Below are positions 1,247 to 53,545 of a DNA stretch of 64,000 bases, piece by piece. Origin of the DNA: Octopus sinensis (lineage: Eukaryota); contig NW_021835996.1 of the NCBI RefSeq assembly GCF_006345805.1, positions 62,001 to 126,000 on the forward strand. The letters are read 5' to 3'. Made by a program: the position numbers and the translations under genes. The first letter of the stretch is position 1; the number at the start of each line of letters is the position of its first letter. The notes below the pieces were generated by a model. It was not told the DNA's origin. It did not search any database and worked only from the letters and a program-made list of their open reading frames with translations.

Positions 1247-1285
1247 CTATTGAATTATTTGAATAATATTAAAAAAATTCAAAAT

Positions 1286-6050: not shown

Positions 6051-6239
6051 TCTTGAATTGTATAAGAAATGAACAATTTTCGATCCCGGAGGAAATATTT
6101 GATAGTAGAGTTTTTTTTGTAACAAACAAATATGCAAACATTTATGAGAAGTACTACATGTACCTCAGTGGTCATCTTCTGATATTCCAATAATCATTTC
6201 CAAAAATTTTTAAAAAATTAGAACGCCAATAAGCTTGAA

Positions 6240-11148: not shown

Positions 11149-12766
11149 ATGCGATACTTTTTACGTGTTGTTTTGCACGCCAGAAAATTTTCAAATTATG
11201 TATTTCCCAACTGCGAACAATCCATCCCTGATCCACATTTGGATTTTGATTACATTTTTAACCAAGAAAACTTTGAAGAGATTCGTACAAATATTAAAAA
11301 CAGAAAATCTTCTGGGGACATAAAAGCTATTGTATGCATTCCATTTGTACTTCTCTAGCACGATATCCTCAATAAGACACATCCCAATGAGCACCAAAAA
11401 GTAATTTAATTTTAATTATTTGTAGCTTATTAAAAACCCACGATTCCTCCGTCTGTGTAAAAAACTACCAAATTTTACTCATCCCGAAACAGTAAGTGAG
11501 TCCTAATCACGAAAGCCCATCGGTGATGAATCTATGGGTGAGCAGGTCACTCTGAAAGGGAAAAGGCCTGGTTGATATAAAAAAATCATATTTTTAGAAT
11601 TTAACTTCCCCCCACGTTCGGCTTCCATAATTTGTGCATTTCTGGGGCAGTTGAGGACACAGTGCTAATTCACACGATAAGTACTGTTTAGAAACACGGG
11701 AATGATCACTGGACCTCGCTCGTACTATCTGATTGGCCAGCTAGCTGAGTTGGAGGAGGCTCTGCTCGAATATGCGCTGGATGTGGTTCAAAAAAAAGTT
11801 GATTGTTCTAAAATGTATTTTTAGGGATTCAAGTTGATTTCAGTGCCAGAAATATTGAATGATGGAGTTATTGTATAGTTTTAATAACATTTTGTAGGAG
11901 TGTTGTGGTGTGGTGAATGACAGTGACCGGTCTTTGGTTTATCGTCTCGACTCAGAACATTATGGACATCACAGTCTCTCGGGGACTTCTGAACTTGCTC
12001 TGGCAGGACTGAACATGAATAATACTTTCGATGAATCAGAATTGCCAAAAAAGTCTGTTTTCAATCATTTTCATGTAATCTTTTAGACTGACGGCTTGTT
12101 CTCGCTGCTACAGAGCAGAGGTAAGCAACGTGGAGGATGAGAAGGGACTATACCGTGTCCATCAGTTCAATAAGGTCGAAATGTTTGGAGTCACTACGAG
12201 AGAAAAAAGTGACTCTTTTCTCAAAGAGATACTATCAATACAACAAGAAATATATGATAGTCTCGGACTGCATTATCGGTTGTTGGTTTATATTATTTCA
12301 GTGTAATTAACATGCCTTCGGAGGAATTGGGGGCTTCCGCTTACTGTAAATACGACATTGAGGCGTGGATTCCTTCCAGTAAATCATTTGGAGAAGTTTG
12401 TTTTCATATTCTAGGAATTTTAGATATCGAGTTGTTCAGATTGTTCGGATTACCAATCAAGGAGGCTGATAATTCGATACAAGGCCGAGAATGGCGATCT
12501 TTCATATGCTCACACAGTAAATGTGCTTATTTAGTCCTGTTGAGGTGAATGGAACTGCGGTGGCACTACCTCGATTGCTTATTCCACTTTTAGAGACACA
12601 CCAGACTAGTGTTAGTGTGTGTTGATGATTTGTGCAGAGGTACTGTGTTGATATTCCACAAGTACTACATCCCTACATGTCGAATGGGACTAAAAGACTT
12701 TGTGAACTTGATAAAATTGTGATGCACTTTAACAAGGCCCTTCCAAAGATTGATTCGGATTTTTGA
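11149..12766 (+). CDS. SARS2: mitochondrial seryl-tRNA synthetase, about 12 exons
   Basis: Spliced product contains [65 protein letters not shown] and [12 protein letters not shown], with a basic N-terminal presequence. Confidence 0.95.
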
Positions 12767-23217: not shown

Positions 23218-25360
23218 CAGGCCTGGCCAACCCAAATCGCATCGCGGGCCACTTTGTCCAAATGAATCCTTTCCGCGGGCCGCATATACATGTACATACT
23301 AAGGATAGATATCAAAACAACACAGATAAGATTTTATTTAGTAAAATAGCATTCAGTCCAATTATACGTATCAATGAGAAATCTGTTTTTCTTTATCTTC
23401 ACTTAATTTTTTCAAATCAACTTCACAATTACTAGTTGCACATCTTAATTGGTTTTCTAAGTTTTTATCTGTTAAAGAAGATCTATATCTACTTTTACTA
23501 AACTTTAATTTCGAAAAGAATGATTCACATACGTAAGTAGATCCAAAGGAGCTTACAACTCTTTGTGCAAAAATTCTTAAGTTGGGATATTTTTCTGCAG
23601 TCACATATTTGTTATAAAAGTCAATTTTGGATATAGTAGGATAAACAAGTCTTAGTTCACTGTTGCACTGTAGGTCAATTATTTCCGTCTGCAAAGTATT
23701 TGAAACAATAGAAACGTCAACATGAAATGGAGAAGAAAATGTTTCAAACATTTTCTCATATTTTTTTAGTTCCGAGAATCGACTGTCAAATGCTGCAGCA
23801 AGATTTTTTATTTCATCAGCGTACTTGAAGAAATTTTTACAATGGCTGATTTTAAATTGATTTAGCGTTGGAAAATGTTGATCATTTCCATTTCTTATTT
23901 GACATTCAAACAATGACAATTTCATTCGAAATGCTTTGACTTGATGGCATGCATTAGTAATCAAATTATCCTGTCCTTGTAACTCCTTGTTTAATTGATT
24001 AATTTTTTCGGTTATATCTACCAAAAAGCACAGATCTAGCATCCATTCTTCATCATTTAATTCAGTTAATGTCATTTTCTTATGCATCATAAAACTTTTG
24101 ATTTCTTCTCTCAAGTCGAAAAAACGTTTTAAACATTTTCCGCGACTCAGCCATCTGACATTGGAAAAATACACAAGATCACCATAGTGAGAATATAACT
24201 CGTTCAATAATTCTTTAAACTGGCGATGTTGAAGTGCATGAGAACGAATGAAGTTTATAGTTCTTACAACCACACTCATAACATGGTTCATAGACAACAC
24301 TTGCGCGCACAAATTGTGTTGATGTATCAAGCAGTGTATTACAAATAAATCATTTTTTATGCTTCTTGACTCCATCTCATCCATTATTAGCTTTACAACT
24401 CCTTTATTTCTTCCAATCATAGCCGGCGCCCCATCTGTTGTCAATCCAGCAAGGGTCTCTAAATTCGCTCCATTGTCGGATAAACATTTCATAACAGCTT
24501 GGAAAATATCTTCGCCCTTTGTAGTATCTTTCAAACTGACAAGGTTAAGCATTTCTTGTTTCACTTGAAAAGATTCGGTAACTCCACGAATATATACTAC
24601 AAGTTGAGACGTGTCTGATATATCCGTGCATTCGTCAAAGGCCAAAGAATAACTTTTGAAATATTTTATTTGATCACGCAAAGTCACCACAATTTCATTT
24701 GAAATGTCATTAACCCTGCGACATATGGTTTGACGTGACAAGCTAATGTTTGAAAACTTTTTAGTTTTATCTGGCAAAATGTCTTTCACGACAGCATCCA
24801 AACACTCTTTTACGAATTCTCCATCCGAAAATGATTTCATTCTCTTTGAAATTATCATTGCAACAGAGTAGCTTGCTTTAACAGTATCAGAAGAAGAGTG
24901 TATCGATGAATTTAATAGTCTTTGCTGATTTCTCAATTCAGATTTAAGCGAATCCAGTTTCCTTGTTTTCAATTCCTTACTAAATTTCGCGTATTCGGAA
25001 TGCTTTGTTTCATAATGTCTTCTTACATTGTACTCTTTCACCACCGATACTTTCTCCTTGCAAATTAAACATGTTGGCTTGGAATTATGCATTATAAAAA
25101 AGTAATCTTCTTCCCAATGATTGCTGAATTGCCTGTTTTCTTCAAAAATTTTCCTTTTCTTCATATTGATAACAGCTACAAAAATAGATAAACTTTAAAA
25201 TTTATTAAACTTATAAAATTTATCTTTATTTATTAAACTTAAGAAAAATTTATCTTGAATGTATTTATAGGTTAACTACATACAAAATTTCTCTCGCGGG
25301 CCGCACCAAACTCCATCGCGGGCCGCATGCGGCCCGCGGGCCTTGGGTTGGCCAGCCCTG
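23218..25360 (-). mobile_element. complete autonomous hAT (Buster/SPIN-type) DNA transposon
   Basis: 18-bp TIRs CAGG(C/G)CTGGCCAACCCAA with one mismatch, perfect 8-bp TSD CTATAAGA (23210-23217 and 25361-25368) and GCGGGCC subterminal repeats. Confidence 0.97.
23371..25164 (-). CDS. hAT transposase, 597 aa, intact and intronless
   Basis: BED-like CLIC...RRHYETKH, LAFDECTD, TTDGAPAM, HCLIH, VRWLSRG, FGSTYVCESFFS and terminal QISH. Confidence 0.96.
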   Translation of the reverse strand: MKKRKIFEENRQFSNHWEEDYFFIMHNSKPTCLICKEKVSVVKEYNVRRHYETKHSEYAKFSKELKTRKLDSLKSELRNQQRLLNSSIHSSSDTVKASYSVAMIISKRMKSFSDGEFVKECLDAVVKDILPDKTKKFSNISLSRQTICRRVNDISNEIVVTLRDQIKYFKSYSLAFDECTDISDTSQLVVYIRGVTESFQVKQEMLNLVSLKDTTKGEDIFQAVMKCLSDNGANLETLAGLTTDGAPAMIGRNKGVVKLIMDEMESRSIKNDLFVIHCLIHQHNLCAQVLSMNHVMSVVVRTINFIRSHALQHRQFKELLNELYSHYGDLVYFSNVRWLSRGKCLKRFFDLREEIKSFMMHKKMTLTELNDEEWMLDLCFLVDITEKINQLNKELQGQDNLITNACHQVKAFRMKLSLFECQIRNGNDQHFPTLNQFKISHCKNFFKYADEIKNLAAAFDSRFSELKKYEKMFETFSSPFHVDVSIVSNTLQTEIIDLQCNSELRLVYPTISKIDFYNKYVTAEKYPNLRIFAQRVVSSFGSTYVCESFFSKLKFSKSRYRSSLTDKNLENQLRCATSNCEVDLKKLSEDKEKQISH

Positions 25361-25603
25361 CTATAAGAGATAATCATTCCCTCAAGGGTTTTTTTATACT
25401 AAGTGATTGAATGTATGCGTACGTTCTCTCATGATGCTAAGCAAACGTGCATATTGCAGAAATTTTTGATTTACCAGCCCATCTTACATCCCTCAACAAA
25501 AAATTTTGTTATTCAATTTTTCCTGCTTTTATTCATTTAAAAACGGATAAATTCTAACTTTAAGATTCTTCAGATCTTCAAAAATAATATTTATTTTGTA
25601 TTT

Positions 25604-28600
25604 TTTTTTTAATGTTAATGTATTTTTTTAACAAAAGGAAGAAAATATAGGTTAATTAAGGTTGTTTAAGAGCAGAAAGGATAGCGTGGCTATTACCCCT
25701 GACAACGGTTGTTGAAAGGCGTTGAAACAGCCATTCGGTCTCCCTTCTATCTTTCGTCCGAACCGAGATCAGGGATCCAAGTTTCCTAATGAAAGCGATT
25801 GATTCCGGACCAAAGACTCCGGATGACTCCACAATGATCGGTTGCACTATGAACCTGTCCTTGAGCTCTGAATATTTTAATTTTTTAATTTTTTCGTAGT
25901 TCTGTGAAGCATATCCTGGAGAGGAGGCTGAGGCGATCAGGTTTGTCTCTGAGAAGGTGTCGGTGCAGGCGCAGTCCCAAACAAGGCACTTCCCGTTGGT
26001 GTACGGGAAAATTGTTATCCCATCAGGCCTTTTTCCGTCTGTGCGGATGAGACCAGGAGGCTCCAGCTGTGCCGGGAAACCAGCTGCATGCAAAGCGTTC
26101 TTGACAATTAGGTTCATTGTATGATGTCTTGGAAACCGGCCTGCACTGCGTCTGCATGAGAGAGCATGCCGTCCGAATTCGTCAACGGAAGCCCCGCAAC
26201 TACAGCGGTGCTGGCGGCAGATCTTCATGCAAAGGCGTAAGGAGATTGCAATTCGCAATGTCTCGTCGTCCAGTTTGTTTCCGACTGAAGGGATAGGACA
26301 TGCATTGAGCCACGCTCCGGATTGTTTTTGTGAAGCGCTTCTAAGGCATGCAAGACGAGATTGATCAGAGACCTCTTCCAAGTGGTGGTAAATTGACATA
26401 GAAGACAGGTCGTCCCAACATCTCTGTGAGAATGAGTTAGCAGGTATCTTGAGGCCTTTGTTCGACCAAATTTCGATTGCCATCTGATACCAGGAGGATG
26501 CGTTACGTTCAGTGGAAAGGGGGAGAACAGCATCCACCAGTGAGTCACACGACAATCGAGAAGAGAGGAAAGCGGGTAATGCAATATCTGCTGGGGAGCG
26601 GAGACCAATGCCTCCGAATCGTATTGGAAGCGTGGCTTGGGTCCACGAGGCTTCGTCAAAACGAATGTTGCAGAGATTTTCGGCACTGTGTTTCAGCCCT
26701 GATTCCAGTTCTTTGAGAAGTTCAGGGTTTATAAAGCAGGGGGCAGAGCGGAGAACGTGTTGTAGCTTGGGGAGTGATATGAAGTTTTTCAACAAGAAAA
26801 ACCCTTCGTGAGCGTCCAGGATGGATAGCCTGCTTGACATAAACTCAAAAGTGGATAATTTTCCGGACAGTATTTTCTCGATTCCTTCCGGGAAAATGGG
26901 AGATCCTAAGACTTCAAGCGACCCTTTCCTGGTTATAATGCCACCCGGTAAGACTGCGTGATATTTTTCCACTATAGTCGCGAAATCTTCCTCGTTGGCG
27001 TTGAGGTTTATAATCTCACATTTTGAAGGGTTCAACTGTAATCCAATTTTCTTCAGACTTACAGCGATTGATTCGATATCCAAGATGACTTGGTGAGCAG
27101 GACCACCAATAGTAATGTCATCCAGATACCAAACGTTGAGCGGTGATTTTACGGCGTGTGCTGTTGGGTTAACACCCATGGAGAAGAGTAATGGACCAAG
27201 GGGGTCACCTTGTTGGACCCCAGAGGAGGACAAGATCGTGTGTCCGTCTATCATTAGTTCAGGTGTGCAACCGTAGCACATGCTGGCCATCGGGAGTAAT
27301 GGAATGTTATGTTTGCTGCATTCTTTAAGGAAGCATGAGCGGTCGATGCAATTAAAAGCATTTTTCATGTCCAATTTAGCAAGAATACAGTCGTTATAAG
27401 CAGAGTGTGAAAACTCTGTAAAATCCCTCACGGCGTGGACAGTGGCTTCGCAGCCACTTTTAACACCGACACCCATCTGTATGTTATGGAAAATTTTCGG
27501 AATCAGATGTAAAGACCTGGCGCAAGCGATCTTAGCCGCCAGTCTCCTGAAAACATTACCGACGGATATGGGACGGATTCCACCGTCCTTTTTATTCAGC
27601 GCGGTCAGGTTACCGGAGAGAAAAAGTGAGCGTGGGAAATCAGACAGAGACCCTTCGAGGAATGCGTTCATTAGACCACAAATATCCGTCAAAAGACGTT
27701 CTCCGGCTGCGGAAGCTGAAGAGGAGACCAGATCCATGATATGACTTGGACGGAGGCCATCGATTCCGCCGCTGCTACTAGGGCGAAACGACTTCAGGGC
27801 TCTCAACACTTCGTCTTTATCGACATGCACAAAGTCATGATCCGGGCTTGGTGTTGGTACTGTTGTAGGAGAAGATGGGGTGGGATGTTTTGCTAGGAGG
27901 GACTGTATTGTTTGTTCGTCAACCCTCGCAACTTTATCGTCTGAGGAAATTATTCTCAAGGCGGCCGAGAAGTCGCCTGACATTAACTTGGAACGTACTC
28001 TCTTGCGTAGGTTTTCGTTGTGGTTTAGTCTTGGTTTTGACAGTGAGTGGCTTTCCTGAGATATTAATGTGTCGATGGAAAAGGGGAGGTAAGAAGAAAT
28101 AGATCTTTTAAGTTTGGAAGTAAAATTCCCAGGCAATTTATCTCCACGGGTCAGGCCAAGTCCGAAAAAGTGGAAGCAGAACGCTTTTGCCCAATCCTCG
28201 TCCCTGTTTGAGGTCATAGCTCTGGATATCAGAAGAGACAAGGCCTCCGCAGCTGCTGGACGAGCTGGTTTCGGTAAACGGATAGGGATGCTTCTCGAAT
28301 GACGATATCTTGATAGATAAGATAGTATTGCGTTCGATGAAGTTAGTATATTGGGAGATTGATCATGGGAACTATCAAACAATGTGGGTGTGTCGTGGAA
28401 TGAGGCAGCTGCCAGGCAAGAGTTACAGTGCCATATTGGGATGCTGGAAGCGGATTTCTTCGAAATCTTGAGACATCCAATATGGAAGTAAGCATGGCAG
28501 TTGGCGCAGTAAATGCCGTTTTTGCGGCAGTTAATTTTACTGCATTTACCACATGGTAATGGATCGTGGAAAAGAAATGACATGTAAAAATAGGAAAGAA

Positions 28601-28705
28601 GTATTAAGAAAGATAACAGAAATACCGACGAAAGTATTAAATTATACAAAAAATATGAAAAATAACAGATAAATGAAAAATGTACACCACAACACCACGA
28701 ACGTG
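25604..28705 (-). mobile_element. full-length CRE-clade non-LTR retrotransposon
   Basis: Single ORF, short 3' poly(A) (T-run at 25601-25610) and 11-bp TSD ATTTTGTATTT at 25593-25603 and 28706-28716. Confidence 0.92.
25656..28583 (-). CDS. PHD finger + reverse transcriptase + CCHC + restriction-like endonuclease polyprotein
   Basis: C4-H-C3 PHD, KKDGGIRPI, LDMKNAFN, GVQQGDPLGPLLF, YLDD, CSCG...HALSC, RH and KRPDG...WD. The first ATG is at 28583; the ORF track starts at an upstream TTG. Confidence 0.93.
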   Translation of the reverse strand: MSFLFHDPLPCGKCSKINCRKNGIYCANCHAYFHIGCLKISKKSASSIPIWHCNSCLAAASFHDTPTLFDSSHDQSPNILTSSNAILSYLSRYRHSRSIPIRLPKPARPAAAEALSLLISRAMTSNRDEDWAKAFCFHFFGLGLTRGDKLPGNFTSKLKRSISSYLPFSIDTLISQESHSLSKPRLNHNENLRKRVRSKLMSGDFSAALRIISSDDKVARVDEQTIQSLLAKHPTPSSPTTVPTPSPDHDFVHVDKDEVLRALKSFRPSSSGGIDGLRPSHIMDLVSSSASAAGERLLTDICGLMNAFLEGSLSDFPRSLFLSGNLTALNKKDGGIRPISVGNVFRRLAAKIACARSLHLIPKIFHNIQMGVGVKSGCEATVHAVRDFTEFSHSAYNDCILAKLDMKNAFNCIDRSCFLKECSKHNIPLLPMASMCYGCTPELMIDGHTILSSSGVQQGDPLGPLLFSMGVNPTAHAVKSPLNVWYLDDITIGGPAHQVILDIESIAVSLKKIGLQLNPSKCEIINLNANEEDFATIVEKYHAVLPGGIITRKGSLEVLGSPIFPEGIEKILSGKLSTFEFMSSRLSILDAHEGFFLLKNFISLPKLQHVLRSAPCFINPELLKELESGLKHSAENLCNIRFDEASWTQATLPIRFGGIGLRSPADIALPAFLSSRLSCDSLVDAVLPLSTERNASSWYQMAIEIWSNKGLKIPANSFSQRCWDDLSSMSIYHHLEEVSDQSRLACLRSASQKQSGAWLNACPIPSVGNKLDDETLRIAISLRLCMKICRQHRCSCGASVDEFGRHALSCRRSAGRFPRHHTMNLIVKNALHAAGFPAQLEPPGLIRTDGKRPDGITIFPYTNGKCLVWDCACTDTFSETNLIASASSPGYASQNYEKIKKLKYSELKDRFIVQPIIVESSGVFGPESIAFIRKLGSLISVRTKDRRETEWLFQRLSTTVVRGNSHAILSALKQP

Positions 28706-28929
28706 ATTTTGTATTTATAATAAAAATAGATTTAAATTTTAATATTGAAACAAATTTAAAGCATGTCCGGAATTAGGCTAGTGACATTAAAATTGTTATA
28801 AAATTTGAACCGTAAAATTATGCTAATAATTTGAACCGTAAAATTACCTTTTTACTCTCGATTTGTAAAATGAAAATTTTTCGTTTTTTTTCGTTAGTAT
28901 TTAGAGTTTGATCTTAATAAACAAATATT

Positions 28930-30146
28930 TTTAGATATAATACTCTCGATTCGTTTATGAAAGGGAAAATAATTGCGTTATACGACTTAAATATGTCCTA
29001 TATTAAAATTTCTAAAGAAACCGGTGTTTCATATTCAATAGTCGTGAATTTTGTCAAAAAGTACAATAAAACTGTATCATATGACCGCCAACATGGTTCT
29101 GGAAGACCATCAATTTGAATAATGTACAAATTAATCATTTGGAACTCACATCAGAAGAAAATTCATCTTTAACTGCTTCTGAACTTTCTAATGAAATAGA
29201 AAAGTTTTTTGATACACATGTCTCGTTTCGAACTATAATACGTAATTTAAATAAAAATGGAATTTTCAGAAGAATTGCAAAGAAAAAACCACTTCTAACA
29301 AAAAAACACATGGTTTCCAGATTCAACAAATTTCTTCAAATTTTAGACCATGATTTTAGATCAATAATCTTTTCTGATGAATGTATTTTTGAATTATTAC
29401 CGACCCAAAAAAATTGTGTATAGAAAAAAATTTGAAATGAATAAATCGGAAAATATTACTCCAACTGTCAAATTTGGAAAAGGTAAATTGTGATGTAATA
29501 AAAAATTAGGAAAAGTCATGGTGTGGGGTTGTTTGTCCTATCATGGAGTAGGCGATTTGGTATTTATAGACAAGACGCTTAATTCTGCAAAATATCAATC
29601 TATTTTGACCAATAATTTACCACATTCTGCACAAAAAATGAGGATTGTTGACTATATTTTTCAACATGACAACGCTCCCAGCCATACATCAAAAATATTT
29701 TTACGAAAAACATATTAAAAATTAGAATGGCCTTCGCAATCTCTGGATTTAAATCCAATAGAGCATTTGTGGGCTTATATGAAGGTTCAAATTAGGCAAA
29801 GAAAAAATGAGAACTTTTAGCACTGAAGGAAAATATAATAAATATTTAGTATTCTATTCCAACAAAAACACTTGAAAAATTAGTTGGGTCAATGAAAAAA
29901 AGATGTTGGGAGATCTATTCGACAAAAGGAGGTTATTTTACATATTAATTTGACAATAACCAAATTTTATGTCAATGAAAGTCGTTGTTTTTTCCAAATT
30001 TCTTAGACAAAATTTCAAAATTTAAATAATTAAACTAATTATTCTCAATTTTATCAGATTTTAAAATATATTGGAAGAAAAAATTAAATCATTCTTTGTA
30101 TAAATTAAGTAAGTTGAAGATTCACCAATATTTATTTCGAGGGGTG
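28930..30146 (+). mobile_element. degenerate Tc1-family transposon with a 27-nt intron
   Basis: KGKIIALY...[46 protein letters not shown]. Right end ...GAGGGGTG followed by TA. Left TIR not found. Confidence 0.88.
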
Positions 30147-30179
30147 TATGTTAATACAATAGGTATTATTTTACTCTCG

Positions 30180-30760
30180 CATGATAAATTAATTTCAGCT
30201 CTTTAAATAGGAGGTCATATTTTCTCACTTTTTCGATCTCCACTTTCCGTAAATTTTAGGAAGATGTTATTCCACCTTTAACTTGCAGATTTAATTATTT
30301 ATTTTGTCAAAAACAAAAAAAATGAGTTTGTTATGTTCCAAGACGATATCAGTCCTTATAAATGTGTTCGCCCTGATTGCAGCCTTCTCATTCTTCGATA
30401 TAGATTCTACTGAATGTGTTTTGACCTTTTTGTTATTCTTAAGTTCAAATTCTGGACAAAAATAAAAGTTTATGCATCTCACTACTTTATCATGCCCCCT
30501 GACATAATTCACATGTAACATCTTATTACGTATAGTGGCACAATTGTCGACGGTCTTCTTCCATCTCATGGAGTGGGAACTCATTGAGTTATGTTCTGCG
30601 CGGAATAAATTTATATCTTGTACGAGACAGAATAAGCCTTCAGATCGTGGGGAGTTATAGCCTTTTGCTAGGCAGTGATTAGAGTTTTAAACATTCACAA
30701 AATCATCCGTAACAATTTTTTATAGGATGGAATGAAGACATTTTGATAAAATCTGGTCAG
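30180..30760 (-). mobile_element. R4/Dong-like RLE retrotransposon 3' remnant
   Basis: KTVDNCAT...YVRGHDKVVRCI...KTHSVE...IRTDIVLEHNK, homologous to the 55250-56380 and 63220-64000 remnants. Confidence 0.7.
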
Positions 30761-31339
30761 TAGATACTTGTTCTGGGTGCTGTAGTGTAGATTTTATTTT
30801 TCTTAATAAAATACCAAATAGATTTTTTAAAAACAATCGGTGTCATTGGAAAACCCAATCAATTTGAAAATTTTGATTATTTTTGTTACTGTAGAAATAC
30901 AAATTCAATTATATTTTTTACAAGTATAAAAAATCTGTTATTTCTTCAGTCAAATTTTTTTTACCAACCTATTAAATTACCGTTATTTGGTGTCACGAGA
31001 CATTAGAAAAGAGTTGCCAATGTGCTTTTTAAACCAGATTGTGCGTATCAATAGATGCATAATGTTGTGAACGATTTCAAATGATGGTAAAAAAGCAGAG
31101 GACTTAAATTTGTGCCTACCAGTGTTATGTCCTCACAACCTGAAAAGGACTGAAGATTAACATAAAATGAGGAGCAAATTCTATAAGCGATTTTAGAAAT
31201 GATGAAAATAGTTTATATTTTTTTGGAAACTATTGGGTTAGAAATAAATCTTAAAAACCTGTGACTAATTTACCGTTTTGAAAGACCTTGGAATACTTTA
31301 TTTGAGAGTTTTAGCACTGTATGAAGAGCAAAAAACTAT

Positions 31340-31600
31340 AAGGCACTAGCCAATCCAATGTAGACCCGCCGCAGTGTTCTTACTTCGGGAGATCGCTGCC
31401 AGAATCTCCGCTTCGGAAATATTGCCTGCATCGTTCCTTGATATGCCCAGCTGGCAGCGCTTGTCCCACGACAATATCTGCTGGACAGTATCAAAGGACG
31501 ATGTCTCCACGAACTGATTTCCGTCAGTTCCAGAGATGTCATTGAGGTAGGTCGAAAATATTTCAGTCAGTCAGTTAACAGAACATTCAGTACTAATTTT
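31340..31600 (-). mobile_element. LINE RT N-terminal remnant
   Basis: ISEAEILAAISRSKNTAAG...I, the pre-RT motif. Confidence 0.5.
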
Positions 31601-31639
31601 CCACACTGAAGTTCGGTGGCTGTCAAGAGGAAGGGTGCT

Positions 31640-32606
31640 TAAATGGGTTGCCGAACTAATTGGTGCACTCACTAATTTTTTACAAGAAATAAATAATATA
31701 GAACTCGCCAATATGTTCGCAGATTATGCCTTCAAACAAAAGTTATTCTATCTTGCTGATGTATGGAATAATAAACGAATTAAATTTATCCATACAAGGT
31801 AAATCTTTCTTTTTTATCCTGAAGGTAAATGCATAGAAGCTTTTGAAAAAGTATCTGCATTTAAGCAAAAGTTGAATTTATGGAGGAAAAAATTAACTTT
31901 TTCCGATGTTGGAGGAATTAATTGGAAATAATAAACCTGAAAAATGAATTATTTTACAAATCGACGAACACCTAAAAAATTTGCAAATTAAATTCGAAGA
32001 ATATTTTAATTGCGATCAGATTGTTCCCCGATTGTATTTTGTGTAAGATTGATGAGGCTCAGGAACTTCCTTTTCTACAAGAATTAATTGATTTAAAAAG
32101 CTCTACGACTGCAAGGGTTACTTTTAAAATTTTTGTGATTATTCAGATATGTTTCAATTCTTGCACACTTATGGAATTTTGGAGTAAAATGATTCCAAAG
32201 TATTCGTTTTGACTATGGCTAGTATGCAATATTTAATTCATTATCCAACAACTATGCGAAACTGCGACGTCTTGTTTATCATTTATTAAAAATAAATCTC
32301 TTAATCGATTGAAAGTTGGAGATGATATGCTAATCGCTCTTAGCAACGTGGATTCGAATATTACAAAACTTGTTGCAGAAAAACAACAGCAAATATCTCA
32401 CTAGAATTAAATCTTTTACACTTTTTCTGCATAAAATATTTTATTGATTTTGTTTAGTTAAAAAATAATTTATCTTTTATAATTAAATCATTTATCTCAA
32501 AAAAAGATATGTAAAAATTTAAAAATCGATAGGGGGTACGCGGGATCCATTTTTAACTCCAAGGGGTACAATTTATTAAAAAATTGAAAAAGGTTAAGAA
32601 CCTCTG
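31640..32606 (+). mobile_element. degenerate hAT (Buster/ZBED5-like) 3' half with two tiny introns
   Basis: YLAD...NELNLSIQG, AFKQKLNLW, ELIDL...FW, NRLKVGDDMLIALS...KQQQISH*. Right TIR ...AAGGTTAAGAACCTCTG with GGGGTAC subterminal repeats. Confidence 0.85.
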
Positions 32607-34103
32607 CTCTAAAGTAATCAGCCGGAATTATTTTTTTTATTTCTTTGATTTTTAGATTTAAATTTTGGAATCATATAGCCTTTTAATATATTTTTAACTT
32701 GTGCGGATTTCGGAGTATTTCTAAGTCATTAGTGCATCAATGTTATCCATAGTCACTAAAAGTGAACATATAAAAAACAGAAATAACTGAACTGATTAGA
32801 AGGGATTATAGGACCAAGGAACTATGGCGGAAAGTCCGTCTTCGGTGACGAAAATAATATTAGAAGAAGGAAACACTTATTTACGCTACACTACAAACAC
32901 TTAGGAAAAACTAGCTCGCCCACAGAGGGCTTGATTTTACAATGCATATGTAAAATCTATATCCTCAACAACTCGGGAACATGAACATGGGATAATATAA
33001 GACAATAATACGAAAAGCTAAAAACTTTCCGCAGAAATCAGCTACAACTAATCCCGATCAATCAAAAATTTCGTCAGGAATCCTCTACAAGAGAACGGGA
33101 ATCACTATATTCTCGGAGGAGATTCTGGAGTCAAGATGAAGCCTGTTTTGTCACGCCTTAGTATTGGAAAGCGCCTTAAGGATGGAAAAGACCTCGACAT
33201 GTCACGCGACACAACTCAAAATGGAAAAAGCTGTTCAGGGACCTGACCTATTGTGCTGCAATAACATCACGTAGTGCTAATAACAGTGCCCAAATGTCAT
33301 TTGAAAATACTGAGTTACAAAGTGATTTTTAAATAGAATTTACAACTATTTTGTATTTTCCAACTTATAGATGCCTAAAACGTCGAGGATTATATGTAAT
33401 TCGCTGTGGTGGGCTGCTCCAAATCATTATCGAACCAAGCCAGCCAAGTTTTATGAAAATATTAACTGTCTTGAATGAGTCAAATGATCGAAATTTGATG
33501 GTAGGACGCTAGTCGTATTAATGCATGGGGTATCACCATGCACAGCTACGATGCTCTTCAACAGGCGAGGGAGCTGTCTTTTATATTTTAACAATAATTA
33601 AGCCTCCCTAAAAAGTCCTTATCTATCATCTACAATTTCAATATCATTTTTAAATAAATAAATTTCTGAGGATTCATTTATGTCCAAAAAATTATTTTCC
33701 TTTTCCGGCACGTATCATTAACAAATTTATAGTGGAAAAAGTGCCTGAAGGAATGCCAATTCATCTTAATGTACAACCCTGCAATAATCCATCCTGGAAT
33801 AAACATCCAGTATCTATAATTTTACTCATTATCCTCCAATCAAATCATCATCGACAAGCATTCCTCTAGGAAAGAATCCTTTATCTGTGTGAGGGACAAT
33901 TTTTATTATTTGTAATTTTACTATTGGATCAAAGTCAAAAAGCTCACAAGAATATATAGACATTGAATAATCTGGACATAAGTGTAGAGAACAAGTCTCA
34001 TTCAAATGAGATTAGTCTTTTTAATAAACAAATTAATTTAATTGTTTAGTATTAATTTTATTAATTTTTAAATAATATTAATTTGTAATATAAACGTGCA
34101 TTC

Positions 34104-35078
34104 ATGGTGATTGCTGGTGTTAATATTCATATAGGGTGTAAGAGGTATTAAAAGACATCTGAAACGAGTAAATGCTCCAAAGAAATGGATGCTGAGCAAG
34201 ATGGGCGGTGTCTTTGTATGACTGAATGTCTACTAATGTATAAATAGGCACCAAAGCCCACATCAGGTCCCCACAAGCAACGTGAATGTATCCCAATGGC
34301 TCTGGTCCTTCGAGAATATTTCAAATTTGCTTTGAATTACCAAGAAACCAAAAAAATCGCTAAACGTAGAGTAGTGAAAATCGACAACAAAATTCGAACT
34401 GACCACCGATATCCGATTGGTCTGATGGGTGGGTATTCTTTAGTTTATTCTTAGATGTGATCTCTTTCGGAAAACTAAACAAGCACTACAGAATGCTTTA
34501 TGACGCCAAAGGACGATTTAAACCCACTCCTATTGGAGAAACTGAGGCCGAGGTTAAATCTATAGAGTTGTATTTGATAGGTCAAACTGTGTAAAGTTCG
34601 AAGAACCATAATCGGTCCTCAGAAGATTCCTTATCTATACACCTATGATGGAAGGACTATCAGATTCCCCAACCCTGCAGTAAAGGCTAATGACACGATA
34701 ATGCTCCATTTGGCTACGGGAGAGATTAAAGACTTTATAAGCATGGACAAGGGTTTGTTTCGTATGATTATTTGTAAGGCAACTTGTGTATTATTACTGG
34801 AGGGCGTAATTTGGGGCGAGTAGGGGTGGTCAATAAGATTGAGAAACACCCTGGTGTGTATGATATTGTTTATGTTGAGGATTCCTCACATAACAAGTTT
34901 TGTACTCGGTAAGAATTGTCGGTTTTATATAAGAATGCAAAATGTGTTTATTATTGGGAGGGGGAATTCTCCGTGGATCACGCTAAGTATTGATAATGGT
35001 GTCAGACTTACTACAATGGCTGATCGTGAGAGGAGACTCAAAATGTCTGCAAAAGCAAAGGGAATAGAATTGGCCTAA
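34104..35078 (+). CDS. RPS4: 40S ribosomal protein S4 (eS4), 7 exons
   Basis: Introns 34107-34134, 34216-34247, 34429-34454, 34553-34580, 34753-34778 and 34909-34933 (28, 32, 26, 28, 26 and 25 nt) give [21 protein letters not shown]...GPHK...KLCKV...DGRTIR...GGRNLGRVG...EKHPG. Confidence 0.97.
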
Positions 35079-35997
35079 TTTTTACTTTATTCTTTCATTA
35101 ATGTTTTGGTTTATATTTTTTCAGCTACTCTTTAACATCTTTGTGAGGATCTTTTTTTACTATATTTATCAATGACTTTCACTTGCTCACTACCCATTTT
35201 TTAGATTCTCATTGCTGTTCTAGTAGTTTCCTTGGTTATAGCGTTTATTTTTTTTTTAAATTTTTTTTTTTTTTGGACCTTCAAAAATTATTGAAATAAG
35301 TTGGCGTTTATTTGATCTTTGATCTCAATCTGCTGAGTCATCTTTCTCACTCCATCCACTTTTGCAATCCACCCGCATACTTTCCAGGGTTTTTCTTCTT
35401 AAAGGGCTTTCATGTATGCATTGATTGAATTGACTAAATTAAGAGTATTTGGACTGTGATTTTAAAAATTGCTTATACCATCACAGGTTAGCACTATAAG
35501 TACTATATTCACTTGAGCATTGTGGATCGATGGGATTTATTGCGGTATTCGTTTGTATTTTCATAAAATGACTAGCGCATAACAAGTCTATTTAAATTAT
35601 TTAATGATACTTTCTTCCATTGAAAATCACTAATTCCAGTTCAAAATGTTGACTTAAAATTGATTCATTCATACAATCTCTAATTGATTCATAAAATATA
35701 ATATTTACAAATATCTTGTTGAATTATCATTTAAGATCTTGCGGGGTGTTTTTGATTGAGGTCAACTCTATATTTGAAAGATAATTCTCTAATTAATATT
35801 TGTAGTATATAGGTCGTGTGAAAAGATTCCAAGCTTTTAATTCTAATCCCATTAAACAGTAAACAATGAATAATATAAATAAATTTGAATTTTAGTCAAT
35901 TCAATTCTTTTATTTCGTTTCAGATAACAAACGTTTATCGTTAAATTTATATACAAATTTATTCGAATAATACCGTAAAAATGATAATTTTGAAAGA

Positions 35998-36393
35998 ATG
36001 ATCAAATCCAGTGATAACTTAGAAATGGAAAGAAATGAAATGTGCAATATTTGCCATAAAACATTTTTGTTTCAAAAAGGATTAAAACAGCATATGAACA
36101 TTCATTTGAGCTATAGACTATTTACGTGTAAGGTACTTTCACTTAAAACAACGCTCCAAGGTCTGTAGTAAAGCATACACGCAATATTCCAATTTATGCA
36201 GGCATATAAAAAGCACAGCGTAAAAAAATCTGCTGCTACGATGGATACTAGCAGATATCAACACTCACTAGAAAATGACGAATCCGAAGGAAAAAAGCTA
36301 TATTATCAGTTGTATTTAAAGAAAGAATGTTTTATAAAGTATGAGAATTATTCAGAGGCATATATTTACAAAAGCATGTTAAAGAAATGTTAG
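35998..36393 (+). CDS. short C2H2 zinc-finger gene, Evi1/Prdm16/hamlet-type finger pair; apparent 1-nt frameshift
   Basis: CNICHKTFLFQKGLKQHMNIH...FTCK|28-nt intron|VCSKAYTQYSNLCRH. One extra A in the run at ~36207-36212 restores the final His (HIKKH) and joins ORF 36196-36393. Confidence 0.7.
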
Positions 36394-37073
36394 TTTATTA
36401 CTATTTCATGTTTTTGGGAATGTATAATCTAACCCCATTAATCTATCGAAACAATTTGAATACAATTAAATACAATAGTGAAAAATGCGACAAATCGGAC
36501 CAAAAGTGCAAAAACTTATCAATTCAAGAAGATAATAAATAATCAAAAAAACAAGAACACTCTCAGACAGAGTGAAAGGAATTATAACTGAAGACATCAA
36601 AGAATTAATCAGTTTTGAACGTTTCCTCCCCGCACATCCTTCAGAGAGCTACGATAAAAATAAAAGATTTTTAACGGGGCGATCAACTTTTATTTACACA
36701 AACAAGGCAATTTACGACGTGGCCACGTAGAATTCATTAACAGTGCACTCGAAAACATTAAAGTACGGATTCTCTTTAAAATTCATAGAAATTTGGAATG
36801 AAGCAAGATTTAGATTTATATATTAGAATATTGGAGGTTTTTCCTAAAGGGAAGATGATTGCAGAGACAGCTTTTCAGAGGGAACTAGTCCATTACCCTA
36901 AAAAGCAGCACTGCTGTGGAAACAATCTATCACATGGAAAAGAACGGTAGATGAACGAGTTTTGACTTTTAAGGAGTTGTTCCCAATGTATTCGGGCTCA
37001 AATCTTTTGCAATGAAGAGATATTTGAGGGCGATGTACTGGATGCCAAAGTTTAAAGGAATAAACCCCAACTA

Positions 37074-38534
37074 CACCCCTCGTCACCGAAAACCGGACAA
37101 GCCATTTTTTATGATTTTATTAATTAAATACGAAAAATCAAAAACTTAAGCTTAATATTTTTACTTAATAATAATAATTGTGTATTAATTATTAATTATG
37201 CTATTATAGAACTAATATTTAACGCAGAATTTCAATTTAGCTAAGACATGTAAAACCGGACAAAACTTTTATAGATCTAAAAGTCGTTGAAAAGAAGCTA
37301 AAAATGTATAGTCAAAGAAGAAGTCACCTTTCAGATTTCCTGAAAGGACAAATTATTGCATTTTATAATCATAATATGACTTATCGAATGATTTCTACAA
37401 GTATAGGAGTCCCAAAATCAACTGTATCAAATGTGATTCAGAAATTCAAAAAAACTGGATCAATTAACAGACATCCGGAAACTGAAAGAATAAAATATTG
37501 TAAGAGGAAGAAATTTTGATTTTAGTAAAACTATCAAATAATACCCCTTATAAAAGTGCCAAAACTCTTAGCATCGAAATTAAAAATATGTTCAAAAAAA
37601 ATTTCAACAAGAATAGTATCTCGAATTTTAAATAAGAAAGGATTATATGGCCGAGCTGCTAAAAGAAAACCTCTTTTATCCACAAAAAATATAATTTTAA
37701 GACGTGAAATTACGAAATCATTTTAAAGCATTTCCGACGAGACATAGAAGTCGGTAATTTTTACCGATGAATGGTCTTTTGATATTTTTAATATCAATGA
37801 GCATCAAATAGTGTATAGAAAAAATGGTTCTGCATACAAAAAATGCAATATTGTCCCAACTGTAAAATTCGGTGGTGGAAAAGTAATGGTTTGGGGCAGT
37901 TTCCGTATAACCGAGTCGGTAATCTTGTTTTTATTGATGGAATCTTGAATAGCGCGAAATATATTAATATTTTATCCAATAATATATTCGAATGTATCAA
38001 AAAATTTAGAATAGACTCATTTATCTTACAACATGATAATGCACCTTGCCATAAATCTAAAATATACAAGATTATATTAAAGAAAAAAACATTATTTTAC
38101 TTCAATGGCCGGCTCAATCACCGGATCTAAACCCGATAGAACATCTATGGGCAGAAATGAAGAGAGAATCATCAAAAAATGTAGCCAAAAACAAAAATGA
38201 ACTAAAGGACAAATTAGCAGAAATATGGAATACTATATCACTAGAATTATTGAAAAAACTAGTAATGTCTATGAAAAATAGGTGTTATAAAATTTTCAGT
38301 GCAAATGGTGGAAATATTAACTACTAAATGACTTGTTTTTATTTTTGTCCGGTTTTACATGTCTTAGCTAAATTGAAATTCTGCGTTAAATATTAGTTCT
38401 ATAATAGTATAATTAATAATTAATACACAATTATTATTATTAAGTAAAAATATTAAGCGTAAGTTTTTGATTTTTCGTATTTAATTAATAAAATCATCAA
38501 AAATAGCTTGTCCGGTTTTCAGTGACGAGGGGTG
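37074..38534 (+). mobile_element. full-length but inactivated Tc1 element with ~192-bp IR/DR-type TIRs
   Basis: TIRs 37074-37265 and 38343-38534 are nearly identical, with TA flanks and AAAACCGGACAA at both ends of each TIR. Frameshifted transposase with IFTDE, LQHDNAPCH and [11 protein letters not shown]. Confidence 0.95.
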
Positions 38535-38641
38535 TATGTTCTCCCTCTTCGTAAAGAACACGTCAAATCAGATCACTTCCAGCTCACTTTGGCCAGACTC
38601 GCTCTAAAAAGAATGTCGTTTGATATCGAGGCAGTTATTTC

Positions 38642-39949
38642 GGTACTGTTGCATTTCATACTGCACGAAAATTGCCTCTAAGTGAATTAATGAAAATTTT
38701 TATGAATATTAGATCGAAAACTTAAAAAATTAAACTATGCCGAATTTGACATTTTATTCTAATTTTTTTTAAAAAAATTTGAATTTTTACCGGCTTAGTG
38801 GTGTCAAAACAATACCGACAAAATTAAATCTGAGCTATTAACGACCACCTGTCTAAAAAGACACAGTTGTTGGTTAATAAAGATGCTTATCATCATTCCC
38901 TCAGTGACAAAATCTTTATTACAATAAAAAAGGTCAGCTGGTAGTACGAAGCGTGATATTCGGCGGACAAAATTTGACGATGGCATCTATTAGCTCATCG
39001 AAGGAGTTGTCTAAATGGCTCACTTGCCTTCTCCATAATGCACCCATGAAGTGACGCGGGGTCCCCCTTTGTCTCTTATGCACATAAGCAAGAGCATTGA
39101 GATCTGGCGTTGAATAACCTATTAGCAAGAATAAAGTAGAATTACCCTTCCATTTGTCAGTGTGTATCACTGATCCCGGTGCGATATTTTCCTGTATTGC
39201 GGCGGTTAGAGTTCTTTTGGAACGATCTGGAACCATCTTGATGAAACAGTCTTTACTTCCACGACAGATTCCCCCAAAAACCCATTGTTGAGGGAGAATC
39301 CGTCCTGCATTGTTTTTCCGTTTAGAAAACATGCATTCGTCAACTTGGACAACTTTGCCAATACCACCTAACAATCTAATGGAACACTCATACCAATAAT
39401 AATATGCGCAAACCTCTCGCAGGGAGTGAGACCAATTACGAATTGTATGGCTGCTCCATTCCAGTTGACGCCGACACCATAAAATACTGTGTCTGTCGAA
39501 ACTCCACATGTACATAAAGCGAATACATGACTGTAAGGTCACTTTCGTGCCTTCGAGCCACGTACCTAAAAATAAAGTACTCTCTTATACCGTTTCTAAT
39601 AGAACTATATGTTCGACACCCACTTTTATGGCACACCCATGTTGTATTCTCCTGCTGTTGGAGAAGGGTCATAAAATGTCTGTTTTGACATTTTTTTTCT
39701 TTGTGAAAGATTCCAACCTCTTGAAAGAAGGCAACTGACTCCATTTCAGTACGGGGAAGCTCATAGTCCTTCAGTTTTGCAAATTTTCGCATGACAACTG
39801 TATCATTCATCTCCACAAGCCGGTAAAAAATTCAATTTTTTTTAAAAAAAAATTAGAATAAAATTTACAAATTCGGCATAGTTTAATTTTTTAAATTTTC
39901 GATCTAATATTCATAAAAATTTTCATTAATTCATTTAGAGGCTATTTTC
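38642..39949 (-). mobile_element. Merlin (IS1595/ISXO2-like) DNA transposon, defective, with two tiny introns
   Basis: LGGIGKVVQVDE...KRKNNAGR...QWVFGG...VPDRSKRTL...IAPGSVIHTDKWKG, ~130-bp inverted repeats and 8-bp TSD GTTATTTC (38634-38641 and 39950-39957). Confidence 0.93.
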
Positions 39950-40962
39950 GTTATTTCTTGCAACAAACTAAGAAGTCAACCAAATTCTTTGTTCATAGTC
40001 TCCTCACAAAGTCCACTGCAGAAAGAACTAATAGAAAAGGCTCCAGCTTGTGCCCAGTTCTGTATTTCTGGGCCGTTCAAAAGTTTTTTGAGAAAACATG
40101 CTTACCTATTACGTGTTGGGGTATAGGACTGATGCAACTGGTAGAGTGGAGAATTCGGACGAAAATTTGTTCAATTTTTACTATGAAAGTGAAGAAAATA
40201 GGAAAAAACTAAAACCTATAAAACAATACATGAACAAGATGATGAAACAATCCTGGCACTGTGTATTTTGGTAAATGAATTGGATTTTGGATCCACTCTC
40301 AGTGGGTGGCTGATCTATTCACGAGAGGAAAATCCAAGTTTAGTTTCCAGAAAAGTGAATATACGTCTGTCGGAATAAAACTAATCTTCCATTGTTGCAT
40401 CAATAATTTTCAAACAGAGATTTACAATTTTTTTAATAACAACAACTTTTGTACATAGTCTTGAAATGTTATAAAATCGAGGATAAATTCTTAAAAGAAA
40501 ATGTTTTTTAAGTAAGAGGCGTGTTAAAGGACAATTAATAATTATTCATGAAAAAATTGTTTTAATCAAATTCAGATCTTTGGGACAAAATGAAGAATCT
40601 TTTTAATAAGGGTATAAAGGTCTGATATTGAAAAATTCTACTGAATGTCGTGTTTTTAACACCACAAAGCGTGTCACACAGGAAAATCAAATTTTTTTCG
40701 ATAGATACGAATTCTTTGTATAACACAGGAAACATGGGACCTCGATAAAAAATTTAATGCCTGAGTATTCCAAAGACCCATATGATTCATAAGTGTGAGG
40801 AATAGTTATTTTCTTTTAAAATAATCTTGCTAAGACTAGAAAATGAACATCAAACTGTGATACTTAATAAAATATTTTTTGCATTAATAATTAGATCGAA
40901 AAGAGTTATTGCCAGAATATATAAAAATAATGTAAAATAAAACTATCCAGGTTAATATATAA

Positions 40963-50399: not shown

Positions 50400-52560
50400 A
50401 TTTATTGGTTTTTCTAAAGCTTCAATTAGTGAATGGGGGAACTATAAAGTTCAAAGAAACAAGTCACTTTCTTAATTTAAAAATAACCTTTATCATCAAA
50501 TAATAATCACGATATTAACATATTCAATCTCTCCAATCGTATTTAAAGCATTGGTGTATTCTGTTGAAAAACATTACAAATTTCGCATGTAATTTTCAAT
50601 TCCACCAGCAAGATCGTTTATCGAACCTGTGAAAATACTGTCAATAATTGTATAACACTTAATTCGACAAATTTATACTGTAGAGCTTGCCGTTCTTGTT
50701 TTTGCAGGGTTTTAATCGTTTCAAGAAGCATTCTATGTTCATTACAAATTAATTCATCAACAAAATCAGCCTTTATCGCATTTTCTCGATCGAACTCATT
50801 GTGAGAAAAAACATCTTCCACATCATAAGACTCTTTTGAATGTAATTCGCGTAAATTATCAACATTCACTTGTTCGAGTCGAGATATTGCAGAAAGATAT
50901 TCAGAATTTTGAAGATTTATAAAATATAGATTTTTTCCAAGTTCAGCGTTACAGGATTTTAATAAATCCAGTTTTTCAATCTTGCAGTACAATTCGTCAT
51001 TTGTACATTTCAGTTGATGGCATTGGAACATTGTAGTGCTGAGATTTTCCTTTTCAGCATTTAAACGGATGTTTAACTCATCAATTGACTTTCTATCTAA
51101 TTCGAGCTTGTGGAGCAATTCTTTGAAATGAGTGTTCTCACTCTCAAGTTCATCTACTTTGGACGAGAGAGTCTCTTTAGCTTTGTGCATCCACGATATC
51201 TCCACCTGCAGAGAATCGTTCAAATTGTTCAATTGATCAATCTCGACTCTTTCTTGACTTAGTTTACAAAAATTTGTGTGCAGCCCCGCAAATTCCTGTT
51301 TAAGTGTTTGAATTTCATTTTTTAATTGTGTCGTAAACTGACTATTTTCAACTTGTGATCTGAGATGGTCAGCTTTCGTTATTTCTAAAATCTGTTTGAG
51401 ATCATTTCGTTCCAAAATAAGTTTTTTCGCCTTTTCAAATTCCTCGGCCTAAAATTTCTTTAGTTGAGCTCTAACAGAGTCCCTTTCTTCATGGAGATTG
51501 CTTATTATCGCTCCAGTATCAACCCTAAGTTGTTCCAGACGACTTATCTCCTCCCCAGCTTTAATTTTGCCATTTTCTAAGCCTTTTACAACCTTTTACA
51601 ACGTTTTCTCTTTTGGACTGCAAATGTCCAAACTGGGCTTCTAATGAGTAGTATGCATTCTCCCAATCAGAGTTTCTGCAATTGATTTGCTCAAAATTGT
51701 CTCTCTCCTTAGTTATGTTGTTCATTAATTCATTAATTGTGACATTCTGAGAGGATAGGGTCGAATTCTGAGAAGCCAGAGAATCATTTTAGTCTCTTAA
51801 TTTGGCATTCGTTGTTTGTTCAAGTTCAAAATTTTTTAGCAGCTGTTCCTTGGCACTTTGGCAGCTTTCCAATTTACAAGTTAGCTGCTCCTGAAAATCC
51901 ATTTGAGACTGCATTTGATTTACGAGGCACGTTTTTTGATCGTTTATTTGTTTAACTTCACTTTATAAGGGATGGACAGTCATTTCAAGGTTACTTTAGT
52001 CAATTTGGCGTTCTTTAACGACTTTATTAAGATTGGTCTGCTCTTTGTTAATTAAGCGACTTTTTGATCGCAAAAATTTTTCTGATCTTTTAACTCAAAA
52101 AATTGACTTTCCAGGATTAAAAAATTGTTTGATAGTGAATCAAAATCTGAATTTTTTTGAGTCAAGTTTAGGGTGACAGTCTCTCATGATTTATTAATTT
52201 CATCCAATTCAGACCGCAGTGTGTCAACAAGTCGAGATTTTTCTATAAATTTTGTCAATTTGGCCTCAAGTTTGGCAATTTTGTCTGCATTTTCCTTTTC
52301 TTTTTGCTTCATTTGATCATTGATTTTTACAAGAGAGGCATTCTCCACACTCTTTTGGTCTCTCTCTGCCACTAAAACACCGATGTGGCTTAATTTATTG
52401 GAAATAAGTTCGTAAAAATCTTCTTGTAATTGAGCAGTGTCCTTTTTGTCACACACAAACTATGCCACATAAACAGGAGCACCAAACCATATCGCTTCTC
52501 AGGCCAACAGCATTGATCTTGCCACTAAGAACACACATTTGTGATTTGAATCGATTGTTT
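50400..52560 (-). CDS. long coiled-coil protein, unassigned, with apparent frame disruptions
   Basis: Heptad- and E/K/Q-rich ORFs 52184-52456 and 50618-51415 with tiny introns. Boundaries approximate. Confidence 0.5.
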
Positions 52561-52624
52561 GAATTTTCCAAATAATTATTTTGAAGTGAAAAGTTTCCAA
52601 GTTGAGTTTGAAGTTGTTCGATTT

Positions 52625-53115
52625 GGGCTTGCTCAATAAAAAGAGCCCAATGTGGCTATCCACACAACGTAATTTTTCAGAGAGAAGGGAAAATTCCGAA
52701 ATTTTAGCCTTCATAACAACTTTGATGCTACTTTCAAAAATAGGAGATCCAAGAAAAATCAAGTCTTCTTAGAGGGGGAAGATGGATCCAGGTAGCAGTT
52801 TGTCGAATTCGGTCATCTACTTACGAAAGGAAAGTTCGTCCGCGTTGACATTCACAATTTCGCATTTGCCGCAGTTGAATTCAAGCCCAAGCGCTCCAAA
52901 ATTAAACACAAGAGACTTCAGCGTTTCCAAGATGCCTTCGGGGGTTTCTCCAATTACTCCATCATCCAAATACCACATGTTAAGATCAGTTTTACACGAT
53001 CTCGTTGTTTGGTGGGTTGCGAGGGAGAATAAGAGAGGACCTAGAGGGTCACCTTGTTGAACTCCATTGGGAGAATCAAGTATGGTTGTCCCGAATATAA
53101 GCGCGGAAGGCTTGA
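52625..53115 (-). mobile_element. CRE retrotransposon RT-core fragment
   Basis: GVQQGDPLGPLLFSL...NMWYLDDG...KCEIVN...FLGSPIF. Confidence 0.88.
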
Positions 53116-53545
53116 AGTATTGAATAACTTTAAATGAATGTCTTTATTTTGTTTAAAATGGACAAATATTTTATAAATGGAGTATTTTTATACAAGTACT
53201 CATTCAGGATTGTTGTAAACAGAGTCGACTTAAATCAATTAGTTTAATAGATAAAGAATATTTGAATAATGAATGGTTTTTAAGATTGGCTTGTCTACGA
53301 ATTGTTGCTTAAACTGTAAATTGTATTTTTCGGATTTAAAAAAGCATCTAATCAGTCAAAACATGGTCCAACGATTATATTTTCAGATTATGTTTAGTCG
53401 TGATTCCTAACTCATTGATTTGCAATTGTGGTCCACCAAAAACTAGAAATAAAATAGCCCGCCCGACCCTATATGAGAGGGAGACGTCCGGTGGCAAGAA
53501 TACTGTTTTTATCAAGGAACAGATTCACGACCCGAGAAAACTATG

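Follow-up and report, generated by a model that had tools for sequence, protein, structure and literature searches.

Predicted ultrashort introns in Merlin, Tc1 and hAT transposases of a likely dicyemid genome assembled together with Octopus sinensis

Introns are rare in class II transposable elements. A described case is TLEWI, a bivalve Tc1-like clade that acquired conserved GT-AG introns and transposed afterwards (10.1101/656579). In plants, CACTA and mariner-like transposases carry clade-wide intron positions, and the introns were proposed to hinder horizontal transfer; the CACTA history is mainly one of loss from an intron-rich ancestor (PMC4158355). Very short introns as such are known from dicyemids, where they have a mean length of 26.2 nt, a median of 27 nt and weak GT...AG signals; the Dicyema japonicum genome has 36.7% GC and 49% repeats (PMC2222250, PMC6543705, PMC6736024, PMC13644364). 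We have analyzed a stretch of 64,000 nt from the Octopus sinensis assembly GCF_006345805.1 (contig NW_021835996.1, positions 62,001 to 126,000), termed the window, in which copies of Merlin, Tc1-like and hAT transposons carry inserts of 25-30 nt that we predict to be introns. The DNA very probably belongs to a dicyemid parasite of the octopus, and we call its elements parasite-side.

The window is like dicyemids in intron length and in weak splice signals, and like Dicyema japonicum in GC content (35.1%). However, the dicyemid papers, in their accessible parts, concern host genes with introns at ancestral positions, and transposase introns are not described there. TLEWI resemble the Tc1 elements of the window as a Tc1 clade with conserved GT-AG introns and later transposition, but they are DD36E elements of low copy number, mostly without terminal repeats, and look domesticated. 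The Tc1 elements described here are DD34E, young and present in at least 30 copies, they have terminal repeats and introns of 27-37 nt, and Merlin and hAT behave likewise. Clade-wide positions and intron loss are shared with the plant elements. In CACTA loss dominates, whereas here three superfamilies in one animal have lineage-private intron sets. Introners, mobile introns with a shared sequence, also link transposons and intron gain. The present introns differ from them in that they lie inside transposases and have no sequence common to the positions. A literature search, mainly of open-access main texts, found no report of introns in dicyemid transposases and none of dicyemid scaffolds in an octopus assembly. 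While transposase introns and tiny dicyemid introns are each known already, their combination appears unreported in the literature searched.

Inserts across the transposon families

The original prediction, made on the letters of the window, named five inserts: one in a Tc1, two in a hAT and two in a Merlin element. All five start with GT, end with AG and have the lengths it gave (27, 26, 30, 25 and 27 nt; Table 1), and removal of each yields the proposed peptide. For one hAT peptide, LSIQGKCIEAF, the removal is correct, but the wording stems from a 9-nt deletion that only the window-type copy has. Since the window copies are themselves decayed and broken by frameshifts, stops and deletions, the inserts were examined at family level. 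They recur in all aligned family copies that cover the site, with GT..AG ends throughout in Tc1 (30/30 loci), Merlin I1 (27/27) and Merlin I3 (22/22); among the Merlin loci, L010 and L027 are one element. In hAT, the first insert (hAT1) is found in six of six distinct elements, four of them with intact GT..AG, and the second (hAT2) in ten of ten, nine of them intact. The inserts are thus family-wide. As genome searches score the best 40 or 150 candidates, every copy number given here is a minimum; in DNA searches, a query with introns also places copies with introns at the top of the ranking.

In total, 18 distinct positions (six Merlin, one Tc1, eleven hAT) hold GT-AG inserts of 20-37 nt. Several are common to families that are only ~45-57% identical and whose intron interiors can no longer be aligned. 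The 40 transposon introns do not differ in length from the 19 predicted introns of host genes in the window (23-34 nt; seryl-tRNA synthetase, RPS4 and a BEACH-domain gene with two), both sets having a median of 27 nt (p=0.33). Interiors are AT-rich (AT 0.84 versus 0.75 between the transposon-intron and host-intron sets). With GT...AG ends, host size, frame restoration and positions conserved among homologues, the inserts have the features of U2-type introns. The claim that resident transposons of three superfamilies carry host-sized introns is therefore supported, and it holds family-wide.

It might be argued that the inserts are never spliced, being disabling insertions in non-autonomous copies or alignment artefacts. 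Splicing is predicted from genomic DNA, and the alignment program did report false introns where unrelated sequence is inserted (L010, L193, L256 and L277; together with L018, L197, L251, L252 and L289 such calls were discarded). However, families that are ~55% identical keep GT-AG ends in one and the same codon phase although their intron interiors and lengths differ, the coding sequence is under purifying selection and a frame-preserving loss exists. We therefore regard unspliced inserts as scarcely credible.

Merlin elements are defined by an IS1595/ISXO2-like DDE domain, terminal repeats starting with GG and a target-site duplication of 8-9 bp. The present family has such a domain and GGTAC ends, and the sequences flanking the ends, as candidate target-site duplications, match at 7/8 positions in L014, at 6/8 in L003, over 7 bp in L138 and over 4 bp in L004. 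Both Merlin inserts of the original prediction are real, but the full-length copies have six, three of them in segments deleted from the window copy. A third, I2, is present in the window and was overlooked because an adjacent 23-nt deletion restores the frame. In intact copies, spliced alignment with GT-AG introns outscores that with a CT-AC decoy; for L134 the scores are 273 with GT-AG introns, 200 with the decoy and 193 without introns. Families that are 53-57% identical over the query have positions in common with the window's family (family E five, families F and G three each). Parasite Merlins form one clade (100/98) in a careful tree that omits 17 of 45 rows (near-duplicates, long or partial rows).

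The Tc1 element with the insert, Tc1A, belongs to a family with a DD34E triad, a paired-like helix-turn-helix, terminal inverted repeats and TA at both ends; short imperfect terminal repeats with TA were found in six of eight copies checked. All 30 loci fetched, out of 41 matches, have an insert of 26-27 nt with GT and AG. In the family copy L032 the predicted transposase has 330 aa when spliced and meets a stop at 183 aa when unspliced. Its triad has 34 residues between D2 and E, and the insert is placed between the first and second catalytic aspartates. Most Tc1A copies are 98-100% identical to L032, and hence an element with an interrupted catalytic domain has amplified recently. As predicted, the related Tc1B is uninterrupted (VKFGGGKVMVW in 12/12 loci). 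Of 52 further Tc1 loci, L177, L178, L180 and L194 have an intron at this phase-1 position, and L182 has a decayed one there, which rules out the reading of L182 as a precise intron loss. These loci share 54-55% aa identity with Tc1A, their intron interiors are unrelated and dS exceeds 2. In the Tc1 tree, the families with the intron fall into a single clade (ultrafast bootstrap 98), the other nine families being intronless, and one old gain would be the simplest reading. The tree omits 8 of 55 loci (L125, L127-L130, L132, L193, L212), and the scaffold compartment was checked for three of these families. The 5' non-coding part of Tc1A also contains a non-LTR retroelement (25604-28772, minus strand) with one open frame, 1038 aa from stop to stop, a weak PHD finger and RVT_1; decayed relatives lie at ~3350-6200, 7270-7700, 52500-54000 and 59100-59950.

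hAT elements have paired terminal repeats and an 8-bp target duplication; the window's decayed hAT, which we take to be Buster/ZBED8-like, retains the right end only. Homology to hAT holds; its two exon fragments alone gave no Pfam match. The family has three positions, two of them common to families 43-57% identical; the third insert lies in a 5' region that the window copy lacks. The weakest of the five inserts is hAT2, found in this family alone. The hAT lineages carry non-overlapping intron sets, and others have four, two and one. The other hAT of the window is, as predicted, one uninterrupted frame. The hAT tree omits loci of fewer than 230 columns and five duplicates. Four loci (L247, L244, L267, L148) were considered as host-to-parasite transfers and rejected, as their scaffolds bear microsatellites and match repeats of the octopus rather than of the window type; they were removed from the parasite counts.

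Table 1. Transposons, predicted introns and reference genes, in window coordinates
Feature	Position	Strand	Details
Seryl-tRNA synthetase gene, host baseline	11401..12637	+	11 predicted introns, 23-34 nt; score 471 with GT-AG, 346 decoy, 310 none
Intact intronless hAT transposase, control	23371..25194	-	607 aa stop to stop; PF05699; young family
Tc1A, Tc1-like element with flanking TA, decayed	25485..30148	+	PF01498; ~92% identical to L032
Tc1A transposase	28957-29948	+	within Tc1A
Tc1A predicted intron, 27 nt, phase 1	29483..29509	+	G-rich box VKFGK^GK; in-frame TGA inside
hAT element, 3' part, decayed	31577..32606	+	spliced alignment to hAT profile
hAT1 predicted intron, 26 nt, phase 1	31799..31824	+	IQ^G; position common to L234/L236 and L237 families
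hAT2 predicted intron, 30 nt, phase 0	32117..32146	+	TAR^I; multiple of three, stop-free
Ribosomal protein S4 gene (RPS4), host baseline	34104..35078	+	six predicted introns, 25-32 nt; PF00900
Tc1B, Tc1-like, intronless control	37072..38536	+	194-nt terminal inverted repeats
Merlin element, internally deleted copy	38642..39951	-	start codon 39810; PF12762, 29.3 bits (cut-off 27)
Merlin I3 predicted intron, 27 nt, phase 1	39119..39145	-	DKWK^GY; common to family E (L134)
Merlin I2 predicted intron, 26 nt, phase 1	39368..39393	-	alignment to full-length family; new
Merlin I1 predicted intron, 25 nt, phase 1	39566..39590	-	position in all three deep parasite Merlin lineages

Source of the window DNA

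The window lies on an unplaced scaffold of 520 kb in an assembly of 2.72 Gb. It is gene-dense and free of microsatellites. The chromosome-scale contigs of the same assembly hold molluscan haemocyanin arrays and a second RPS4, which is 49% identical to that of the window over the tested exon; for the window RPS4, one combination of candidate splice sites yields an open frame. Samples of 10 kb split in two groups: microsatellite-bearing ones that match chromosome repeats, and microsatellite-free ones that match the window transposons. In public databases, proteins with 99% identity to the intact hAT of the window carry the label Octopus sinensis, and a protein search with window proteins found no named close relatives, the best matches having 57-61% identity.

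Among sequenced animals, introns this short are reported only for myxobolid myxozoans and Dicyema japonicum (PMC13644364), and cephalopod kidneys are the habitat of dicyemids (PMC2222250). Introns of this size in an animal that occurs together with a cephalopod point to Dicyemida, and we therefore consider the window, with high confidence, to be DNA of a dicyemid kidney parasite that was co-assembled with its large-genome octopus host, a point that had escaped the original prediction. A myxozoan source is ruled out, since the co-assembled host has molluscan haemocyanin.

Dozens of unplaced scaffolds of 0.2-1.3 Mb (for example C12467, C1794, C8702, C6303 and C7755) carry the transposon families of the window, and those sampled are microsatellite-free. 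Apparently, a long-contig parasite genome is present among the unplaced scaffolds of the host assembly, with its proteins under the host species label. A second RPS4 exon, 98% identical, lies ~200 kb away on the window's scaffold (G000:C12467:295021-295191), and several transposon loci are present as near-identical pairs; this suggests duplications or haplotype redundancy. The window further contains a phosphoglucomutase-family gene (1181-2700, plus strand; first frame 255 aa, internal stops, few introns), which may be a decayed copy or one that partly lacks introns, a tRNA-like sequence (2795-2866, plus strand) that by eye resembles tRNA-Pro, and two inverted ends of a further repeat (15000-15125 and 54156-54298), 39 kb apart.

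Origin, age and loss of the introns

The original prediction left open whether the transposons gained these introns or shrank existing ones. Our preferred reading, to which we give a probability of about 0.65, is that the inserts are ordinary spliceosomal introns, probably acquired singly and in the distant past by Merlin, Tc1 and hAT lineages already long resident in the likely dicyemid genome. Gain within the parasite lineage, after the elements had entered it, is probable because the nearest relatives sampled and the elements on the octopus chromosomes are without inserts. None of the 12 Merlin loci on these chromosomes has an intron, in alignments to a profile built partly from them, and broken alignments, the sign of long introns, were not seen at covered sites. 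All six Merlin positions are empty, where covered, in genomic relatives from neighbouring branches (L213, L218, L219, L226, L228), and none of the eleven hAT positions is filled in 20 hAT loci of the octopus chromosomes.

According to this proposal, rare insertions at G|G-type exon sites would have hit founder elements and become fixed, as they were spliced and nearly neutral. Once an intron with a stop or frameshift was fixed, the transposase would depend on splicing, and selection would then preserve both splice ends and a large part of the short interior. The parasite spliceosome would remove such introns like its own 27-nt introns. Occasional losses would follow, each lineage would end with its own set and many families would stay intronless. 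Directly before the donor, a G stands at 14 of the 18 transposon positions and in 8 of the 19 host introns (p=0.045, uncorrected); gains at proto-splice sites would produce such a bias. Selection on the interiors can be judged between Merlin subfamilies, where dN/dS is ~0.2 and the synonymous p-distance 0.35-0.44. Intron interiors, with I2 excluded, differ by 0.07-0.14 and have changed much less than synonymous sites. Under the neutral null the difference would be 0.27-0.29, and a value of 0.14 was reached in at most 1 of 300 simulations.

A loss is seen in Merlin subfamily C, where all three informative copies (L015, L019, L253) are without I4 and I5, in frame, and keep the flanking I3 and I6. 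Loss is the most parsimonious explanation, because family E holds I4 and family F holds I5. Conversion by cDNA and microhomology deletion both fit as routes.

These introns could also have entered with the founders at normal size and shrunk together with those of the host, while the intronless relatives lost theirs. Here the Merlin elements from metagenomes are informative. Among 17 such loci scored, seven carry introns of 48-57 nt at five positions, and two of these coincide with I2 and I4 (L220, L222, L223 and L227; at I2, 48-54 nt in the latter three). The original prediction had named introns at the same positions in outgroups as a result against gain; this is found at two of six Merlin positions, neither of them among those it listed. 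Dicyemid host introns are themselves shrunken ancestral ones (PMC2222250), and loss dominates in CACTA transposases (PMC4158355) and is also found in Merlin subfamily C. However, the metagenome intron-bearing Merlins form a separate branch with intronless lineages between, and an approximately unbiased (AU) test rejects joining them to the parasite clade (p=0.004, for a group picked after the first tree). The intronless L215 is nested among them, and three further private positions in the same metagenomes argue that gain is frequent there too. The other four Merlin and all eleven hAT positions were not seen outside in the sampled relatives, and for frequent parallel gain there is a precedent in Daphnia (43 of 90; PMC4202315). 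Shrinkage without gain is thus in our view unlikely. The intron-bearing loci L213, L219, L220, L222, L223, L226 and L227 come from one metagenome.

Several points weigh against the preferred reading. The coincidence at I2 and I4 can be explained by parallel gain and equally by ancestral introns that were lost several times, and the outgroups are sparse, consisting of the 17 metagenome loci and the octopus elements. The branching order among the three deep Merlin lineages has a support of 29/20 only, so that stepwise gain and a six-intron ancestor with later losses both fit. The Tc1 clade was obtained without an outside genomic outgroup. The hAT tree is a FastTree tree with weak deep branches, in which the intron-bearing hAT clade of the window has as its sister a decayed copy without introns, L262. 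The introns are predicted from genomic DNA, and 3 of 40 (including the window form of I3 and hAT2) are stop-free multiples of three that could be retained as peptide. Finally, the assignment to dicyemids is likely but indirect, from intron size and the context of a cephalopod assembly.

The suggestion of the original prediction that tiny introns are still being created in present-day copies is not supported. In its favor, hAT2 and four positions in L249 each occur in a single family, and Merlin subfamilies differ in the introns they carry. The latter, however, is most simply loss, given I4 and I5 in the outgroup families E and F. No intron-less copy was found at the noted sites, and the positions shared by diverged families, with saturated synonymous sites, suggest that gain is old rather than ongoing. 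A signature of duplication or of introners was not detected: similarity to the flanks reached p<0.05 for 1 of 34 introns, and of 536 intron pairs from different positions, 12 scored above shuffles where 8.8 would be expected. Ongoing creation is largely refuted at the sampled sites, and overall we hold it to be highly improbable. The insertion mechanism left no detectable trace, and introns born small and introns that shrank with those of the host are both compatible with the preferred gain.

The original prediction also offered that introns are selected because spliced transcripts escape the silencing of intronless RNA. Every parasite-side Merlin family that is covered almost completely has three to six introns, and a human HUSH study reportedly describes an intron-based recognition of self, which we count for this idea. 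However, introns are absent from 9 of 12 sampled Tc1 families and from 5 of 12 sampled hAT families, and some of these have many copies that are 99-100% identical. The window's intact hAT has at least 13 such copies over the query, and two more intronless hAT families and one Tc1 family show runs of equal-scoring copies on window-like scaffolds. Young intact intronless families in the same genome thus argue against escape as a requirement, and selection of this kind seems very unlikely to us.

Implications for dicyemids and their transposons

Annotation with the usual minimum intron size would score these families as dead, and parasite proteins apparently filed under the host species in public databases are a practical consequence of the co-assembly.

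More tentatively, host-range lock, predictable gain sites and intron number as a residence clock can be joined in one reading, which we consider less likely than not. If it is true, transposons that stay in dicyemids would acquire introns of 20-37 nt, which the spliceosomes of other animals could not remove, and intron-bearing clades would spread only among dicyemids. Newcomer transposons would be intronless and intron number would measure residence time in the lineage, while transfer between parasite species living in one kidney would account for the purifying selection seen between subfamilies. The same Merlin codons (I^G, NH^K) would have been struck independently in another organism, and gain would be funnelled to few sites.

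The dicyemid lineage has so far been described only as shrinking ancestral introns. DNA transposases, being mostly intronless, offer a near-zero starting state for counting gains, and the 18 positions in three superfamilies of one animal provide countable gains and at least one paired loss. This set can be used for testing site preference, parallel gain and host confinement of transposons. If the introns were indeed gained within the parasite lineage, the elements would serve as a natural record of intron gain.

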